From contig CBDCFN010000016.1 of the NCBI GenBank assembly GCA_965216315.1, positions 448,001 to 512,000 on the forward strand: 64,000 bases of DNA, given 5' to 3'. This DNA comes from a bacterium. GTDB lineage: Bacteria > UBA10199 > 2-02-FULL-50-16 > JAJFLM01. The notes below the pieces were generated by a model, which ran no database searches, was not told the DNA's origin, and was given only the letters and a program-made list of their open reading frames with translations. This document shows, one piece after another, positions 15,751 to 44,615 of this stretch. A program made the position numbers and the translations under genes. Every line of letters begins with the position of its first letter. Position 1 is the first letter of the stretch.

Positions 15751-18090
15751 TTAATTACGTCGACGACGCAGGCCGAGTAGCGCGGCCGTCGTGCCGAACA
15801 GCCAGAAAAGGGCCGAGGCACTGCTTGGTGCCGTCATTGAAGCAAGGCTGCAACCGCCACTGCCGAGACAATTGCCGCCATTGCAGTCACAAGCGTCGCC
15901 GATTCCGTCCTCGTCTGCATCCGCCTGATCAGCATTGCTAACCTCAGTGCAGTTATCAACGTCATCAGGAATGCCGTCACCATCTTCGTCTCCAGAGCTT
16001 GGTGTTGATATCGAATCGAGATCGCAGGCGTCTCCAATGCCATCGCCATCGGCATCCGTCTGATCCGCATTGGACACATTAGGGCAATTATCCGTGGCAT
16101 TATCCTCACCGTCGCCGTCGGTGTCGCTTTCGGCAATGCAGACGGCGCTACAGCCATCTCCATTGTCATTATTGCCGTCGTCGCATATTTCACCGGCATC
16201 TATAATGCCGTTGCCGCAGCCAAACTCAGTAGCACCGATATCCGAGGTGATGGTACCATCTCCATCTCCGTCAATCCGACCGACACCTACTTGATCGGTA
16301 GCAGGAGCATCCGCGTCGTCACCCGAGTCTATTGCCGGACTCCCGCTTTCAAGGTAGTGTGCTCCTGTGGGAATTCCGTTGGCCGGGTCACCGCCATTGG
16401 CCGGGATTAGAGCCGTCAGCATTGGGTCTATTTCATTTCCCAATGCTCCTTCGATGTCATTAAGACTAGTGTCGAAGTTTTCATCGTCACAACCCTCATT
16501 CGTTCCGAGTATGTTGTTCCCACCTGAGGTTACCGGATTCCCATTCGTACCGCAGTCGGGAGCCGACGTTGCATCAAAATTGCCCGCGATGATCGAATTG
16601 GTAACCGTGAATGTTCCCGCAGATGCTTCTAAATGGATGCCGCCGCCGTCACCGTTGCCGTCAAAATCGGAGTCAGCCTGGTTGTTCGTAATGGTGACGT
16701 TCAAGAGGGTTACGGTAGCGGTGCTAGTGTCGTTGTTGATGCCGCCTCCGCTTCTACCTGAGCTGTTGCCGCTGATAGTCGAATTGGTGACAACAACCGC
16801 TCCTCCATCGGCCTGGATCCCTCCGCCATCATTAGACGAACTGTGATTATTAGAGATAGTAGAGTCTGTAACGGTGAGGCTGCCGCCACCTTCACTTTCA
16901 ATGCCACCGCCTTCGCTCGAAGCGGTATTCCCATCGACCGTTGTGCCGGTGACGGTGGTTGTTATTCCTGTGGCTTCGATTCCTCCTCCGTCGCCAAGTA
17001 ATGCATCATTATTGGCGATCGTACTATTTGTGATAGTTAGTAAAGTTTTACTGATGTCACCCGTTGCATCTCCGTCCGCTGCAATGCCTCCGCCTCCACC
17101 ATCAGAAATGTTTCGGATAATTGATGTGCCCGTAATCGTGGCTGTGGTCGTGAATGCCGCATTGTTGTTAAAAACCATTATGCCGCCGGCCTTACTTGTT
17201 ATTGTTTCATTGTCTGAAATGACTGAATCAGTCACGGCCAAGGTGGTTCCTGAGTTCAAATATATGCCACCGCCTTGATCGTTGGCTTCATTTTGGGAAA
17301 TAGTGCTTGATGTTATAGTAACGCTGGAACCATTGTCGGTGACATAGATACCGCCTCCATTTTCGGTGTCTACATCAGCACCCGTATCTGATGTGCGGTT
17401 GTCACTGATGATACTGCCAGTGATTTCAACGACTGAACCGTCTTCCACATGTACGCCGCCTCCCGTGCCGTCTTCTGCTATGTTGTTGTTGATCAGGCTA
17501 TTTTGGATAATGACCGTGCCGGTGTTGCTTTGGTTATTGTCGACCCGGATGCCGCCGCCGTTTCCTCCTCCACTGTCCCCCGTGTCGTTATTTTGGATAA
17601 CAACCGAATCGAGAATGACGTTAGCATCATAATCATCGGCACGGAAACCGCGAAACCCGCCTGTAAGGGTTAGGCCGGAAATAGTGTGGGGACCTGGGGG
17701 CGCGAAACCGGTGTCGTGATCGACCTCCATTACAATGTTGCCGTTGCTATTATTATCGATAATCAGTGAATCGGCGCCCGGGCCCTGTACGGCCACCGGA
17801 GTATCCAAGATGATTGTGGCATTTGTCGTGATGGTGGTTCCGGATCCCGCAGGAAAAACGGTAGAGTCAAAAATGATAGTATCAGGTGTGTTGTCCAGAT
17901 CTGCTGTTTCAATAGCATCGAGGATATCGCAGTTTCCAGCTCCAGTACACGTGGCCGCGCAGTCAACACCTCCCCCTCCACCTGTAAAGGAAATGTTATT
18001 GACGCAGATATCAGCCGCGTGTGCCGCGTGAGAGGACATTATTGCAGCGATGCCTGCGAAGGTAAAATAAACAAGTGGCCTTAATAGCAT
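15751..18090 (-). CDS. Secreted parallel beta-helix (Pmp-like, choice-of-anchor Q type) protein with Cys-rich repeat, TSP3 repeats and GC-CTERM tail
   Basis: Signal peptide AHA-A; many 'GGGI' repeats; 'SPAIDSG...DQ.G..R...DIGATE'; '[16 protein letters not shown]'; '[24 protein letters not shown]' twice; 'GGCSL' + TM + RRRR. Confidence 0.85.
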
Positions 18091-18452: not shown

Positions 18453-19391
18453 TTAACTTTCTTGCTCTTGGAGCCATCTTTCCGCATCGATCGCCGCCAT
18501 ACATCCTGATCCGGCGGCGGTGATGGCCTGGCGGTAGCGATGGTCCTGGACATCCCCGCAGGCGAAAACGCCGGGGATGTTTGTGCGGGTGTTATCACTG
18601 GTTTTGATATAGCCCGCTTCATCGAGCTCGATTTGGCCTTTAAAGATTTCGGTATTCGGATCATGGCCGATCGCGACAAAAAGCGCCTGGCAGTCGAGCG
18701 TTTGTTCTTCTCCCGTCTTGACGTTTTTGATGCGAATTCCCTCGACCTCTTTGTCGCCAATAACCTCTTCGACGACGGAGTCCCAGACGACGCTGATCTT
18801 GTCATGATTAAGCGCACGGTCCTGCATAATCTTTGAGCCGCGCAGTTGGTCGCGGCGATGGATCAAGCGAACGTCGGTTCCGAACTTGGTGAGAAAGATT
18901 GCCTCTTCGAGCGCCGTATCACCCCCTCCGACGACAACGATGCGTTGATCGCGAAAAAAAGCGCCATCGCAGGTCGCGCAGGTGGAGACGCCTTTGCCGC
19001 GAAGTCGGGTTTCCGACTCAAGGCCCAGCCAACGCGCGCTGGAGCCCGTCGAGAGGATTACCGATTTGGCGCGGTATTCGTCGTTGCCGACTTTAACGAG
19101 AAAAGGCTTCTGGGAAAAATCCACTTCGGTGACATCTTTGCTGATAAAACGCGTGCCGAAACGTTCGGCTTGTTTGCGGAGATCCGCCATCATTTCCGGG
19201 CCCATCACACCTTCGGGATAACCGGGAAAGTTTTCGACGTCGGTCGTGAGCATGAGTTGCCCACCAGATTGATAGCCTTCGATCATTAAAGGATCGAGGT
19301 CCGCACGGGCATTGTAGATAGCCGCGGTCAGTCCTGCCGGGCCGCTGCCAATAATGATGATGTTTTCGACTTTCTGCTCAAGTTCTGTCAT
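18453..19391 (-). CDS. trxB: Thioredoxin reductase
   Basis: 'IIGSGPAGLTAAIY', 'CATCDG', 'GGGDTALEEA', 'YRQAITAAGSGC'. Confidence 0.97.
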   Translation of the reverse strand: MTELEQKVENIIIIGSGPAGLTAAIYNARADLDPLMIEGYQSGGQLMLTTDVENFPGYPEGVMGPEMMADLRKQAERFGTRFISKDVTEVDFSQKPFLVKVGNDEYRAKSVILSTGSSARWLGLESETRLRGKGVSTCATCDGAFFRDQRIVVVGGGDTALEEAIFLTKFGTDVRLIHRRDQLRGSKIMQDRALNHDKISVVWDSVVEEVIGDKEVEGIRIKNVKTGEEQTLDCQALFVAIGHDPNTEIFKGQIELDEAGYIKTSDNTRTNIPGVFACGDVQDHRYRQAITAAGSGCMAAIDAERWLQEQES

Positions 19392-19550: not shown

Positions 19551-19577
19551 GCAACAAAATGAGGGGAGTGCCGAAAC
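19551..19577 (+). promoter_or_regulatory. RCAAC-N16-CGA promoter-like motif, copy 6
   Basis: GCAAC-AAAATGAGGGGAGTGC-CGAAAC, about 10 nt before the ATG at 19587. Confidence 0.65.
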
Positions 19578-19586
19578 CGGCGTTGG

Positions 19587-22500
19587 ATGACTCTTTTTCT
19601 CGCCACCAGCATGCAGCCCATGATGGCACTCGCAGCCGGAGCTCCCGTGACCACCAGTGGGCTGAGCCAGCACCTCAATGGGGCCTTGCGCACCTATGAG
19701 CGGACCCAACGACTCAATGATCTCATCCAAGCTGTCGAGGGCGGTTTGGCTCAGGCGCAAGAACTGACCATCAGGGATCGTTGGACCGCGCCGCAGCTCG
19801 CTCATTTAGCCCATGCCCTTTCCGGGCTGACGCGCCAGCATCAGAGTTTTTTGCTCGCTGATTCACAAGCGTCGGAGCCCCAGATGTCATTGTTGTTTAA
19901 AGAAACGGAAAATGTGATCGAAGCGCTGACCTCTACGGATGACTCACTGATTGTTAGTTCAGATGATCCGGATGATCTGGTTAATTGGTCCCAAGTTGCG
20001 GATGACTATGAACAGTTGCTTGATTCAGGTATTTTTCAGCGAGGTCATTTTCCTCTCCTGCATGGTCTTGGCCAGATGGGACTCTCATTAGGGGCTCGGA
20101 TTGCGCTGAAGTTAGATGGTGCGCAATGGTTTGGCCGTCTTACGGACACTCAACTCGAACATTCAGCCGAAGTTTATTTGTATGGACGTTCGCGGGGTCG
20201 CGATCCGGAGCCGACGAGTTTACTCAATAGTCATCATCGGGTGCCGGAAAAACAATTGCAGGCCGAGCATGGTTGGATCCATCAGGCTGTCAGAGGCATC
20301 GGCCGGAGCGAGCGGCGCGAACAGCAACGCGTCTCTCCATTTCAAGTGACCGGTATTCCATCGAAAGAGTTTGTCAAAGAACTCTATAAGGATGATTACA
20401 GTTTTATGAAGCAGATGCCCGAAGGGGCTATTTTGGTCAGTCCTATCAAGTCTTATATCGCTCCGGACGTTTATTTTAAGATACTCAAAGATTATGCAGC
20501 GGCGCGCAAACAGCGTAATGATGAATCAGAGCCGATTCGCGTCCAAGGGGGCGCGTCGATGGAGGATATCTACGACATGGTTCGGTATATTACGAACCGG
20601 AATGACATCAAGACCGTCCATATTGGTGGTGAATATTTTGCAAAAAATCTTTACATGTATTCAGAAGAGCCGCCACGCCACACAGAACTAGTGTTTGCAT
20701 CGAAAGATATTGAAGCGGCCGAACAGGCGGCACGCTATTTCCGTATTCCGGGACAATTAGAAGTCAGCATCACCGATGACGTTAGTACCGTGATGCTCGG
20801 CGGGGTCATGAAGAATATTGCGGCTTATGCGATGGGCTTTACGGATTTAGAGGAGATGGAACGACTGTATAAGGCCGGCGATGAGACTAACTGTCAGTTG
20901 TATATTGAGACGGGGGACGGAGAAAATGGCTATGTCGATGATCCCCGTAAGTTATCAGGACGTCGTCGCCGTTGGTGGAAGATCCTGGTTGATATTGCTG
21001 AAGGGGTCAAAGGTGAACCGGTCGATCCGCCGCGGGAAGTGTTAAAGGATTTTTGCGGCTGTACTATTTTCAACCGGGATCTGGTTGCGGATCTTTTCCG
21101 TGCCGTTCGCATCAGCTATGATCGGGCGCAGCGCCGTCAGAGCGAGAGTGCTTGGCAGGAATTTCGTGAGGCCGTGCAACAATTTCGAGATCGCGTAGGG
21201 GATTTTGCAAACAGCCGAAATAGACGTGGTGGGCTCCTTCACGCCATGGCGATTTTTGTCAAAGAAGAACTCAAGCGGCCGGAAGAAGCAGCGCTCTTGT
21301 TCTGGGAAAAGACGGTCGAAGGCTATCAGGCCATGCGCGGCTTGCGGGCGACTTTGAGTGATATAGATCCGTTTCTAGCGTCGAGACTGGATATCGGGTT
21401 TAAGCGTTTCTACACAGAGCACGGTGTGCCGCTTCATCCTGAATTAGATCCGCTTGAACCCAAAGCGATTCGCGATGCCGTGATGCAGGGCATAGAGAAT
21501 ACGAATTTTGTTTCGAGTCAGCCGATGTTGGTATCAGCGCGACGGGTCAAAGAGATTTTACAAATACCTTGGTTGACACGAACGGCCTATAATTTTCTCA
21601 AGAACAAGATCAGGGATCTGCAAGATCACATTGCGACTCCCGATCGAGAGCGTGGTCGTGTCGAGCGTGATTTTCGTTTGTTTGATCGGGCGTTGCAATT
21701 ATTCGATGCAGGTATGCTGGTTCGGGCGGGAGATCATATCGCAACAGAACCTGTGCACCCTTATCGGCACATTACGCGTTTTGAAGGTCGCGTGGATCAG
21801 GGGAAAGGTGACGGGATTCACCACTATCATATCGGAATTGAAGGTGATCAGGGGCTTGATCGTGTGCGTGATGTCTCTCTGCTTTTGTCACATCACCAAG
21901 CTCGTTCGGAGCCAACTGAAATTCATATTGAGATCGAAATTTTTGATGCGACGCGCGAGATGCCGCGCGTCTTATGGGCGATGCAAAACGTGGCCAACCG
22001 ATTCCGGGGAAATCAGGATGCGCCGATTAATGTTGATTTTGTCTTCCATACACCAACGGGAAGTCCGCGTTTGAAGGTAACTTCTGAGTTGGCGCAAGAG
22101 ACTCCGGATCATTGGCAGTTTCGTTATGAGCGTGGCATGGATTATCTCATTAGTGCGACCGGTCTCAACTACGATGAATTGACGAGCCATTTCAAACATC
22201 ACGTTAAGATGATTAATTCGATCGTTGGTAAGGATAGCTGGGTTGGTTTAGGCGCGACCAACGTGGGTCAGTATTCAACCGCCTTCAGGGATGCTTTGCA
22301 GGTAGCCGGTGAAAAGGCTTTCTTTGGAGTTTATAGTGATCCCGAACAGGAATACCCTGATGAAGTGGTCGTGGCCCATTTTGATTCCGATGGGGACCTG
22401 CGTTTATATGATAGCCGCATCCAAGAGCTCATGGCGCGTGATTCGGAACGACCTCAAGCCAATGGCAATCAAGAGGAGCGCGATTGGGACGCTTATTTCC

Positions 22501-22787
22501 GCGGACTTCCGGTCGAGCAATATAAAGAGGCCTATGAACGGTTGACGGGTAAGTCATATGGTGAGCTGCTTCCGCTCAATATTTATTTTCCATTGGAAGA
22601 GGTCCTGGTTGGCAATCGCGATGCACGACTTTCACCTCCACGGCTTTTTGTATTTCTGCAAAATTTGAAGGGCGCAAAAGCGAGAGAATTTGCGGAGTGG
22701 ATGGAGCCGCGGCATTTTAGAGAGCCCAATGATCAACTCTATTTGGATATTCGAGATAAAGTTTTAAGTATGCTCCGTTCCATGTAA
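19587..22787 (+). CDS. 1066-aa protein with internal divergent GpsA-like (NAD(P)-dependent glycerol-3-phosphate dehydrogenase) domain
   Basis: In GpsA order: 'HGLGQMGLSLG' (GxGxxG), 'VYLYGR', 'HIGGEYFAK', 'TDDVSTVMLGGVMKNIAAYAMG', 'SRNRRGG', 'KTVEGY'. Confidence 0.7.
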   Translation: MTLFLATSMQPMMALAAGAPVTTSGLSQHLNGALRTYERTQRLNDLIQAVEGGLAQAQELTIRDRWTAPQLAHLAHALSGLTRQHQSFLLADSQASEPQMSLLFKETENVIEALTSTDDSLIVSSDDPDDLVNWSQVADDYEQLLDSGIFQRGHFPLLHGLGQMGLSLGARIALKLDGAQWFGRLTDTQLEHSAEVYLYGRSRGRDPEPTSLLNSHHRVPEKQLQAEHGWIHQAVRGIGRSERREQQRVSPFQVTGIPSKEFVKELYKDDYSFMKQMPEGAILVSPIKSYIAPDVYFKILKDYAAARKQRNDESEPIRVQGGASMEDIYDMVRYITNRNDIKTVHIGGEYFAKNLYMYSEEPPRHTELVFASKDIEAAEQAARYFRIPGQLEVSITDDVSTVMLGGVMKNIAAYAMGFTDLEEMERLYKAGDETNCQLYIETGDGENGYVDDPRKLSGRRRRWWKILVDIAEGVKGEPVDPPREVLKDFCGCTIFNRDLVADLFRAVRISYDRAQRRQSESAWQEFREAVQQFRDRVGDFANSRNRRGGLLHAMAIFVKEELKRPEEAALLFWEKTVEGYQAMRGLRATLSDIDPFLASRLDIGFKRFYTEHGVPLHPELDPLEPKAIRDAVMQGIENTNFVSSQPMLVSARRVKEILQIPWLTRTAYNFLKNKIRDLQDHIATPDRERGRVERDFRLFDRALQLFDAGMLVRAGDHIATEPVHPYRHITRFEGRVDQGKGDGIHHYHIGIEGDQGLDRVRDVSLLLSHHQARSEPTEIHIEIEIFDATREMPRVLWAMQNVANRFRGNQDAPINVDFVFHTPTGSPRLKVTSELAQETPDHWQFRYERGMDYLISATGLNYDELTSHFKHHVKMINSIVGKDSWVGLGATNVGQYSTAFRDALQVAGEKAFFGVYSDPEQEYPDEVVVAHFDSDGDLRLYDSRIQELMARDSERPQANGNQEERDWDAYFRGLPVEQYKEAYERLTGKSYGELLPLNIYFPLEEVLVGNRDARLSPPRLFVFLQNLKGAKAREFAEWMEPRHFREPNDQLYLDIRDKVLSMLRSM

Positions 22788-22833: not shown

Positions 22834-23850
22834 GTGAGGTTTAAGTGGCTGACGCTTCTGTTGTGTCTTGTTTGCTGTGGGTTCGGCTACGAAACTCATG
22901 CGCAGGAACACGCGTCGCATGGTCCTATTTCGATGCGGAGTCAAAACCCCCTCTATCTCCTGTTCTTAACGCCCCGGCCGGAACGGGCGCGTCTCTTGAA
23001 ACACGGTGAATTGCGCCTGTCGGCGCGAGGCCCTTATTCGAATATATTTGAACAGGGTTCCAATGCCATTTCCAGCGTTGATCTTGACTTGGATATGGAG
23101 CTGTTTCGTCCGAGCTTTTTGCTGGAGTGGGGTTTTTTACCCGGTTGGGAGTTTGGGATTGAGCTGCCGTTTATCCATTTTTATGGCGGGTTTTTGGATG
23201 CTTTTGTGCAGGACTTTCATCGCACCTTCGGAGTGCCGAATGGCGGGCGGGATCTGGTTCCCAATGGACGCTTCTCCTATCGAGTGAGTCAGGGTGGCCA
23301 GGACCTCTACTCTACAGGGAGTCAGGTCATTCAACCTTCGGCTCTAATCTTTCACGTGAAGCGGCATTTCTTGGAGGAGGGCGCTAGGCGTCCATCACTG
23401 ACGGGGACACTCTATCTAAAGGTACCAACCGGCAATTCCGGTAAAGGCCTCGGGAGTGGGGCGCCCGATATCGGTGTTAACGTGGCGGCCGAGAAGAGTT
23501 ATAAGCGCATTCATACCTATGCCAATCTCGGTTGGTCTTTGCTCGGAGCCGCCGATTTAGGCTTAGATCCTTTTTTGAATGCCGTGCTTTGGACGTGGAT
23601 GGTTGGGTTTGAGGTGACGGCCTGGTCCCATCATTTGGGTGTTATTGCCCAACTGCAGGGTGACGGTTCGCTGTTTGATGGCACTGGTATTCAGGCGATG
23701 GATCAGGGTAATCTGATGCTGACGATCGGTTTCGCGGGGCAAGAGGGCCCGTGGGGGTGGAAGGCGGCCTTTGCCGAGGATCCGAGCGGTCAGGGGCCCA
23801 CCGTGGATTTTTCCGTCTACTTTGAGGTCAACTATACCTGGGATTTGTAG
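22834..23850 (+). CDS. Outer-membrane beta-barrel-like protein (DUF3187-like)
   Basis: Signal peptide; 'GPISMRSQNP', 'GGFLDAFVQDFHRTFG', 'LKVPTG...GLGSG..D', amphipathic aromatic C-terminal strand. Confidence 0.7.
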   Translation: MRFKWLTLLLCLVCCGFGYETHAQEHASHGPISMRSQNPLYLLFLTPRPERARLLKHGELRLSARGPYSNIFEQGSNAISSVDLDLDMELFRPSFLLEWGFLPGWEFGIELPFIHFYGGFLDAFVQDFHRTFGVPNGGRDLVPNGRFSYRVSQGGQDLYSTGSQVIQPSALIFHVKRHFLEEGARRPSLTGTLYLKVPTGNSGKGLGSGAPDIGVNVAAEKSYKRIHTYANLGWSLLGAADLGLDPFLNAVLWTWMVGFEVTAWSHHLGVIAQLQGDGSLFDGTGIQAMDQGNLMLTIGFAGQEGPWGWKAAFAEDPSGQGPTVDFSVYFEVNYTWDL

Positions 23851-42768: not shown

Positions 42769-42796
42769 GCAACCTGCAAATCGAAGGGGCCGATAA
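42769..42796 (+). promoter_or_regulatory. RCAAC-N17-CGA promoter-like motif, copy 7
   Basis: GCAAC...GCCGATAA (perfect sigma28 -10 box), upstream of 42867. Confidence 0.7.
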
Positions 42797-42866: not shown

Positions 42867-44615
42867 ATGCCACCGATTCAGTTACAAATTGTAAATGGCT
42901 ACGTTGTTGCGACGGGAGGAGGGATCAATTCAACCCTCTCGATGCCGTTGCGCACAGAAGATGCCGGCTTGTCGGCATCTCAGTTAGAGATCTCCAATTA
43001 TTTTTCTAATGCCGATCTTATTGGCGCGGGTGCCAATCTTACCTCTAACAACTTAGGAGGTTCCGGGCTCACCGGTGATGTCGAAGATTATACCCTTCAC
43101 GTCTGTACTGATGATGCGGATGTTCAGGCGCGGCAACGGGCCGCAATTTCCTCACAAATGGGAACGGACCCGAATGACGATTCGCAACGCGCGCGCCACG
43201 AGATGGCCCGCGTTATGTTGGAATCGCTGCCCGAGTCAGAGCGAGCAGATGTCCTGCGCGAACTTCTGAATGCTCCGGATATTATCGCCGCCAGACTCAT
43301 AGTTCTAAGGGCGCTTCATGGCATTCATGAACTAATCGGACATACCGGTTGTAGTTGCCACGAGGATATTCAAGCGCTTGAGGCACAACAGCAGGTAGCG
43401 CAGAACCAGCAACAAAATGCTGTTCAAACGGTTCGTCAGCTGCAAAGAGATGGCGCGCTCGATGAGCAGTCACAACAGGTCGCCCAACAGTATATTGACA
43501 ACCATCCGGATAGTAGTACGTCGGCTCAACTCCAGAGTGCCTTAAGCGGTGGTTCAGACTCTCAATCAGGAGGGGGTAGTGGTGACAGCGCCGCGGCCGG
43601 GGATTCCGGCAATAGCGGCGCCGGCAGCACAAATGATGGCGTGCCGGTTGCCTTTAACGGCTCCGATGCAACTCATTCCGATAATGGCTCTTCAGCTGGC
43701 GTTCAGACTGTCGGTTACGTCGTGGAGAATGAAGACGGATCTGTAAACGTCATCGGTGTTCAGTCTTCAACGACGGATGCCAGCGATGACCACGTGGTCG
43801 TTCCTCAGGGGTCGGGAAGCAATGGGAGCAATATAGTGATTGCCAGCTACAATAATGGCGGTCTTCCGACGGACCCGGCGGATATTTCGGTTGCCGGCGC
43901 GAATAATGTTTATGCGATTACCGTCGATCCAATCTCGCAGTCGGCCTTTCTCGTCAGTGCGGATGGGACTCATGCGGCAATTCCAAATGATGCTTCAAAT
44001 CCGCTTGTTCAAGGCGGTCTCCAGTTAGTTGCAACCGATCATGGTGTTGCCATTAATGGTACGGATCATGATGATGATACGGACGGTGTCGTCTTGACGG
44101 CGTTTAATTCAGCCGACTCTGATCATAGCCACGCAGTGGGATTTCCTTTTGCCGGTATAGGCACCAGTCCCGTGCAGGGTGACAGCGATTCGCCTTTTGG
44201 CACCGGGAACGGATTCTCTTTTGCTGGCTTCGGTCGCAGCCGCTCCACGTCAGGGCTTGGTAGTTTTGGTGGTTTCTTTGGTTCGCCTAACGAATTTGTT
44301 GCGGGTAACTCAGTGACTCTGGCCCAGTTTAATCCCGCCTTCTTAGGCGTGGCGGCCGGCGTTGCCGGTGCCGGACAAACGATTCGAACGGTTGACGGCC
44401 AGGTAATGTTTGTACCCCATTCGGGCCGCTCCGCTCAGGGTCACAGCGTTGTGGCCTCCATCTCAGGTCGCGGTGATTCAGGTCATGGCCTGACGCGGGA
44501 CGGTGGTGGCGGCAGTGGAGCCAGTGATGAAGGTGATGATGATCAACCTGATGATCAGCCGGCCTTGTTTCAATTTGACGATGATCTCCAAGACGGTGCG
44601 TCCGTCATCGCCTAA
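42867..44615 (+). CDS. Hypothetical low-complexity protein (582 aa; Gln-, Gly/Ser- and Asp-rich)
   Basis: Long ORF filling the gap; no Sec signal; acidic C-terminus. Confidence 0.8.
   Translation: MPPIQLQIVNGYVVATGGGINSTLSMPLRTEDAGLSASQLEISNYFSNADLIGAGANLTSNNLGGSGLTGDVEDYTLHVCTDDADVQARQRAAISSQMGTDPNDDSQRARHEMARVMLESLPESERADVLRELLNAPDIIAARLIVLRALHGIHELIGHTGCSCHEDIQALEAQQQVAQNQQQNAVQTVRQLQRDGALDEQSQQVAQQYIDNHPDSSTSAQLQSALSGGSDSQSGGGSGDSAAAGDSGNSGAGSTNDGVPVAFNGSDATHSDNGSSAGVQTVGYVVENEDGSVNVIGVQSSTTDASDDHVVVPQGSGSNGSNIVIASYNNGGLPTDPADISVAGANNVYAITVDPISQSAFLVSADGTHAAIPNDASNPLVQGGLQLVATDHGVAINGTDHDDDTDGVVLTAFNSADSDHSHAVGFPFAGIGTSPVQGDSDSPFGTGNGFSFAGFGRSRSTSGLGSFGGFFGSPNEFVAGNSVTLAQFNPAFLGVAAGVAGAGQTIRTVDGQVMFVPHSGRSAQGHSVVASISGRGDSGHGLTRDGGGGSGASDEGDDDQPDDQPALFQFDDDLQDGASVIA

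Follow-up and report, generated by a model that had tools for sequence, protein, structure and literature searches.

A gene in the 64,000-nt window (the whole stretch of bacterial DNA analysed) encodes a 1066-residue protein, P0001, which is, judging from its sequence, an old and heavily rebuilt duplicate of glycerol-3-phosphate dehydrogenase (GPDH). Our preferred reading, held tentatively, is that P0001 may be an active NAD(P)H-dependent DHAP reductase, made in a sigma-28-like stage and exported in a tagged enzyme set. Its fold, family, residue conservation, promoter and leader, the export machine and the other enzymes of the set were computed in the source genome (2.96 Mb, 98% complete) and its relatives. 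The features of the locus are collected in Table 1.

Table 1. Features of the P0001 locus, given in positions of the window.
Feature	Position	Strand	Remarks
Thioredoxin-reductase-like neighbour, divergent	18453..19391	-	named by eye; same place in G001
Sigma-28 (FliA)-type promoter variant, GCAAC - 14 nt - GCCGAAAC	19551..19577	+	9 nt before ATG
Gene for P0001, 1066 aa	19587..22787	+	from the sequence; three full-length homologues, 36-38% identity
Uncharged leader, residues 1-34, S/T/A/L-rich, contains L-A-A-G	19587..19688	+	first charged residue is 35
Four-helix bundle, residues 22-121, generic fold, poorly conserved	19650..19949	+	
GpsA/GPD1-family dehydrogenase domain, residues 147-617, with insertions	20025..21437	+	
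Rossmann glycine motif GLGQMG, residues 160-165	20064..20081	+	aligned to GAGAWG of GpsA
SPIKS, residues 285-289; K288 corresponds to the SxxKG lysine (Lys120 of human GPD1)	20439..20453	+	
K409-N410, catalytic lysine motif (Lys204 of human GPD1)	20811..20816	+	aligned to ELCGALKN of 2PLA
D488-x3-C492-T493, presumed counterpart of GpsA D-x3-T-C	21048..21065	+	register by eye
Helical hairpin insertion, residues 494-542 (~4 residues in GpsA)	21066..21212	+	immediately ahead of the phosphate grip
S543-R544-N545, phosphate-binding motif (Arg269 of human GPD1)	21213..21221	+	aligned to LSRN of GpsA
C-terminal region 1, residues 618-840, helices and alpha/beta sheet	21438..22106	+	
C-terminal region 2, residues 841-1066, alpha/beta	22107..22784	+	conserved W885, G914, G973, P1002, E1004
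DUF3187 neighbour, downstream	22834..23850	+	46 nt after the P0001 stop

Fold, family and distribution of P0001

The structural model of P0001 matched solved GPDHs over the whole two-domain fold, with 292-335 residues aligned at 2.9-3.3 Å. Both the Rossmann domain and the helical substrate domain superposed, and the model was far nearer to GPDHs than to any other family in the structure comparison. This fold is common to GpsA/GPD1 (EC 1.1.1.94, 1.1.1.8; PF01210 and PF07479; 3K96, 1TXG, 1EVY, 1X0V), which also carry the same Rossmann motif, both lysines, the Asn, the Asp as placed by eye, the Arg-Asn pair and the EG motif in the same order. An earlier note on this DNA had proposed a GpsA origin for the domain from a series of landmarks; all of these were found in P0001 in GpsA order, and the origin was borne out both by alignment to GpsA and by the structure match. 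Its remark that the SKG motif was not recognisable did not hold, as SPIKS, with K288, aligns to SASKG.

The divergence from GpsA/GPD1 was nevertheless extensive: identity was 11-17%, the domain spans about 470 residues instead of 330, and in P0001 it sits between the leader and bundle and a 450-aa tail. In a quick tree, the family formed a long-branch group separate from the phylum's own GpsA, with branch lengths of more than 2 changes per column. When P0001 alone was searched, Pfam NAD_Gly3P_dh_C was matched at E 0.033, and all nine NCBIfam matches (best E 3.4e-4) were GPDH models. In the profile check named in the earlier note, the models that matched were GPDH ones and the scores stayed under the cut-offs (14.8 bits against 25 for Pfam; 19.9 against 257 for the best NCBIfam match, all nine being far below). 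Hence, P0001 is a derived homologue rather than an annotated GpsA. A single-sequence PDB search with P0001 retrieved no GPDH.

A canonical 341-aa gpsA was located elsewhere in the source genome (C16:668508-669533), so that P0001 is not its only gpsA; neither of the two outcomes by which the earlier note would have been refuted was therefore observed. With 1066 aa and this canonical gene present, P0001 is not a stand-alone GpsA of about 330 aa serving as the cell's source of glycerol-3-phosphate; it is GpsA-like by fold and residues, and not GpsA by family cut-off, size or role. The match to another multi-domain GPDH, Dunaliella DsGPDH (PDB 6IUY), spanned the GPDH part only. In DsGPDH the GPDH part is paired with a phosphatase domain, and no phosphatase match of this kind was found in the flanks of P0001.

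The dehydrogenase domain was the most conserved part of the protein (148 of 471 columns invariant among four orthologues). The flanks, described before as unrelated regions, are not random, as the C-terminal region (residues 618-1066) was confidently modelled and is conserved in most family members. No convincing match to residues 618-1066 was obtained, a PDB profile search gave none for C-terminal region 2, and hhalign of residues 841-1066 against 6 GNAT domains of the source genome returned a probability of 0.1. G027 and G028 have a shortened C-terminal region and G003 a different one in its place, the dehydrogenase domain being retained in all three.

P0001 was not the orphan it had been taken for. 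Besides the full-length homologues, 15 matches came from searching 1.84 billion representatives with a profile, 12 of which were more distant proteins of 626-1683 aa, and a second profile search added 14 new relatives. The distant relatives align to P0001 motif by motif over residues 150-1066. The P0001 gene was present in 3/3 genomes of its genome family, and matches to the module were counted in 16 of the 93 genomes of the phylum, in five genome families (our own tally, in which G040 has the tail part only). Four of these 16 genomes (G002, G003, G040 and G041) gave no canonical gpsA match; across the phylum, gpsA was missing at cut-off from 35/93 genomes. A literature search found no protein of this giant GPDH-derived kind. 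Separately, G003 encodes a third type of giant GPDH-derived protein (L099:4264-7476, minus strand; 1070 aa) with different flanks; it keeps more GpsA-like motifs and possibly represents a separate recruitment. The large relatives at L064, L065, L066, L101 and L102 (families f8, f9 and f18) adjoin a polA-like gene, named by eye, and often form a tandem pair.

DUF3187 directly follows the gene in 3/3 genomes of the P0001 genome family, and DUF3187 and ssb lie downstream at both orthologous loci. The thioredoxin-reductase-like neighbour keeps its position at the one orthologous locus that covers this side and is not thought to be part of P0001 function. Elsewhere in the window, a 779-aa secreted repeat protein (15751-18090, minus strand) showed choice-of-anchor Q, cysteine-rich acidic repeat and thrombospondin-3-like matches and, by eye, a myxobacterial-type sorting tail at its end. 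A 621-aa protein with a PlsC-type acyltransferase domain is encoded about 11 kb downstream of the P0001 gene (33488-35353, plus strand).

Active-site residues and the lysine swap

In human GPD1, Arg269 and Lys120 are described as binding DHAP and Lys204 as polarising it (PMC11148179), and Asp260 and Thr264 are given as key residues in a docking study (PMC11187211). By alignment, the equivalents of Lys120, Lys204 and Arg269 in P0001 were K288, K409 and R544. Residues were counted in 33 family members, several of them close relatives, after exclusion of P0005, from which most of the domain is absent: K409, N410, D488, R544, N545, T576 and G579 were invariant (33/33), and E578 and C492 were each kept in 32/33. 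The catalytic set was thus retained in all 33 despite identities of only about 16-20% between subfamilies.

The counterpart of Lys120 showed an exchange with position 406, three residues before K409. The combination K288/G406 occurred in 11 members and G288/K406 in 22, and never were both lysines or neither found (33/33). In the quick tree, P0013 (swapped) was sister to P0010 (unswapped) with 100% SH-aLRT, which indicates that the exchange, or a return from it, took place at least twice. We read this pattern, which is drawn from the alignment, as selection to keep a single lysine at a single spatial position.

Furthermore, several positions departed from GpsA. The family has D-x3-C-T for the D-x3-T-C of GpsA GDLxxTC, with Thr replaced by Cys in 32/33, in a register set by eye; the distance of this motif from the preceding helix is 15 residues against 14 in GpsA, and hhalign put the GpsA motif elsewhere. 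E, Y or F stands at the SGPN/S residue. A helical hairpin of about 45 residues precedes the Arg-Asn phosphate grip (model helices 497-517 and 520-535) and was found across the protein family. The Thr-to-Cys change, the lost SGPN/S residue and the large insertion mean that another substrate may be possible. No acidic residue was found at the end of the second strand in P0001 and, following the rule by which its absence suits NADPH or both cofactors, use of either NADPH or both would fit. The dehydrogenase domain is very probably catalytically active, and DHAP is reasonably likely to be its substrate.

Promoter, leader and export context

The sigma28-like promoter reported previously upstream of the gene is real. 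The boxes and spacer of GCAAC-N14-GCCGAAA were unchanged upstream of both orthologues compared, and a 14-nt spacer was the genome-wide peak, with 34 sites against 1-13 at each of 24 other spacings. There was no clear Shine-Dalgarno sequence upstream of the P0001 ATG. In total, 59 promoter sites were found in the source genome, with an ORF downstream of 48, and the same promoter class preceded three genes at the far end of a type III cluster; we infer that it is read by the FliA-like sigma of that cluster. In other families, the strict pattern stood before 3/5 large relatives (one upstream region being incomplete), 0/4 further relatives and 2/14 carrier proteins. A second promoter-like site of this class, with a 15-nt spacer, lies at position 42770 (plus strand) of the window, before an ORF at 42867. 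In the attack-phase regulon of Bdellovibrio bacteriovorus FliA, as described in PMC3627812, a sigma-28-type -10 box, CCGATA, likewise drives many non-flagellar genes, and FliA drives a whole life stage and not exported proteins alone; the -35 is GCAAC with a 14-nt spacer here and TTAAG-N16 in Bdellovibrio. The source genome also differs in having no flagellin, none being found there when searched.

Type III signals are typically disordered, S/T-rich and charge-poor N-termini, a compositional rule that is not specific. The N-terminus of P0001 conforms to it, with pLDDT below 50 for residues 1-13. At least 20 uncharged residues opened 48% of the promoter-linked ORFs (n=48) against 10% of 1040 background ORFs, and the leaders of promoter-linked genes were poor in K/R (0.042 against 0.107) and rich in S/T. 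The pattern of an uncharged stretch ending in L/M-A-A/S-G/S/A/T was present in 11/48 promoter-linked ORFs, 49/1040 long ORFs and 4/4 orthologues; because this pattern was formulated with the data already in view, its p-value is inflated. The leader of P0001 is described as a candidate export or targeting tag. Across the genome, about 50 long ORFs open with uncharged leaders that are rich in S, T and L and terminate in L-A-(A/S)-(S/G/T), and these leaders are candidates for a new targeting signal.

In other genome families, the module was joined to another N-terminal carrier, about 350 aa long. Unrelated cargo, such as adenylate cyclases, kinases and patatin, had the same leader or carrier. First-look carrier candidates numbered 70-94 per genome in eight genomes, of which 6 per genome were scored, and the 14 carrier proteins scanned comprised 4 kinases, 4 aminotransferases, 2 acyltransferases, 1 one-chain carboxylase, 1 permease and 2 with nothing known. 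In family f8, the N-terminal carrier of the dehydrogenase module also occurs with acyltransferases, kinases, aminotransferases and a one-chain carboxylase as its cargo. Since the dehydrogenase was found behind both leader and carrier, it acts as swappable cargo behind two unrelated tags; a membrane permease as cargo would be odd for injection. In families f8 and f18 (e.g. L149-L160), the cargo behind the shared carrier varies widely, a whole carboxylase and an amino-acid permease being among it.

In the type III cluster (C16:339-372 kb), SctV and SctN scored over cut-off and a FliA-like sigma was encoded; SctJ, L, Q, R, T and SycD-like matches were under cut-off, and five genes beside the SycD-like chaperones had no assignment. 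No needle component matched over cut-off in the source genome (best E 0.14), and no secretin was found inside the cluster, both secretin matches being outside it. The T3SS* of Myxococcus xanthus, as presented in PMC12075869, is without secretin, needle and translocon and is needed for prey lysis, effector delivery being only proposed. The two systems are alike in having export apparatus and sorting-platform genes with no needle match or cluster secretin, and they differ in the FliA-like sigma inside the cluster here; T3SS* cargo is not established in that account. SctV was present in 91/93 genomes of the phylum, so its co-occurrence with the module says nothing. Export of P0001 is probable from its leader and context. 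The resemblance to an effector suggested by the earlier note is supported by context, namely the needle-less cluster with its FliA-like sigma and the shared uncharged leader; P0001 is a candidate for, and not a member of, the type III effectors.

Tagged lipid enzymes and alternative readings

Among the 40 of the 48 promoter-linked proteins that were scanned, 21 had no Pfam match and 4 were clearly lipid-type enzymes: a FAS-I-like chain, a PlsC-type acyltransferase, a patatin and a HAD hydrolase. The FAS-I-like chain (L103, C15:370001-381568, plus strand; 3856 aa) shares the leader type and promoter class, as does the PlsC-type acyltransferase. It gave acyltransferase, MaoC and reductase matches, and its ketosynthase region was missed by Pfam; residues 3277-3511 hold, by eye, Cys-His-His motifs that we take to be the ketosynthase triad. 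Additionally, a one-chain protein resembling acetyl-CoA carboxylase, with a biotin ligase joined to its C-terminal end (L161, C16:1632124-1639980, minus strand), showed biotin carboxylase, biotin carrier, ACC central and carboxyl transferase matches; it has a near-consensus promoter and an uncharged leader, and its start falls outside the strict leader pattern list. ACC-central matches occurred in 22/93 genomes of the phylum and 0/14 controls. One-chain carboxylases were present in 11/16 module genomes against 11/77 others, a difference driven in large part by kinship, as 8 of the 11 belong to one family. ACP was present in the source genome, and FabF, FabA/Z and PlsY gave no match there; since neither FabF nor FabA/Z was matched, the FAS-I-like chain may be its own only synthase. 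FabF-like matches were found in 7/93 genomes of the phylum which, beside the near-universal SctV, points to a widely host- or prey-dependent phylum.

In the mechanism we propose, P0001 would be made from the promoter read by the FliA-like sigma of the needle-less type III cluster, and its uncharged leader would mark it for export, most simply through the type III machine, into a prey or host cell. There, the central domain would bind NAD(P)H and reduce DHAP to glycerol-3-phosphate with the usual Lys/Lys/Asn/Asp/Arg set. It would thereby supply the glycerol backbone for the similarly tagged one-chain lipid enzymes (the carboxylase with fused biotin ligase, the type I fatty-acid synthase and the acyltransferase) and drain the target's triose phosphate and reductant. 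We infer both the target cell and the joint lipid pathway.

P0001 could instead be a stage-specific isoenzyme that stays in the cell, where one life stage (attack, growth on a host or a resting form) is under the control of the sigma-28-like factor, P0001 supplies glycerol-3-phosphate, the cell makes its own lipids through the one-chain carboxylase and the synthase, and the leader targets an internal site or compartment. The absence of FabF and FabA/Z matches, which may leave the FAS-I-like protein as the only synthase, is compatible with this, as are the role of Bdellovibrio FliA as a global stage regulator described in PMC3627812, the missing needle match and cluster secretin, and the four genomes that have the module without a canonical gpsA match. 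We nevertheless consider it unlikely: the source genome has a normal gpsA, gpsA is absent at cut-off from more than a third of the phylum anyway, the leader or carrier is also attached to adenylate cyclases, kinases and patatin, and a divergence this extreme is unusual for a house enzyme.

The remaining alternatives concern what the domain does. An exported P0001 with a changed job might act on a bulkier phosphorylated substrate (e.g. acyl-DHAP or a sugar phosphate), or might simply harm the target by depleting its NAD(P)H and triose phosphate, in either case with no part in a joint lipid pathway. The helical insertion adjoining the phosphate grip, the Cys and E/Y/F substitutions and the conserved 450-residue C-terminal region that accompanies the domain would suit such a change; with all the GPD1 residues that hold and polarise DHAP kept, and a structure so much nearer to GPDHs than to other families, it seems rather improbable. 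Very weak Pfam and NCBIfam matches, many insertions and the conservation of the C-terminal region in most members would also be expected of a catalytically dead scaffold or metabolite sensor, in which the GPDH fold would do no more than bind NAD(P)H or glycerol-3-phosphate and so regulate the C-terminal region, the real output. Against that reading stand an invariant catalytic lysine, the compensatory lysine swap and the three genomes in which the C-terminal region is shortened or replaced while the dehydrogenase domain remains, and we give it little credence.

The preferred reading, that of an active and exported DHAP reductase, has a further-reaching form, which we regard as speculative and doubtful: a bacterium without standard fatty-acid synthesis would export a lipid factory through a needle-less type III machine and build its own lipids in another cell from host metabolites. 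This factory would consist of the self-biotinylating carboxylase, the synthase, P0001 as the glycerol-3-phosphate step and the acyltransferase.

The family of giant proteins defined here contains a deeply diverged, apparently working GPDH that Pfam and NCBIfam miss, and its lysine swap offers a clean natural case of an active-site residue shifting between two positions. P0001 also provides needle-less type III systems with a concrete candidate cargo that can be assayed. If the lipid-factory proposal is true, P0001 would be the first anabolic dehydrogenase serving as cargo in such a pathway found in our literature search. If the tagged lipid enzymes are exported together, a host-dependent bacterium would feed in a new way, by building lipids in another cell and not only by taking them.
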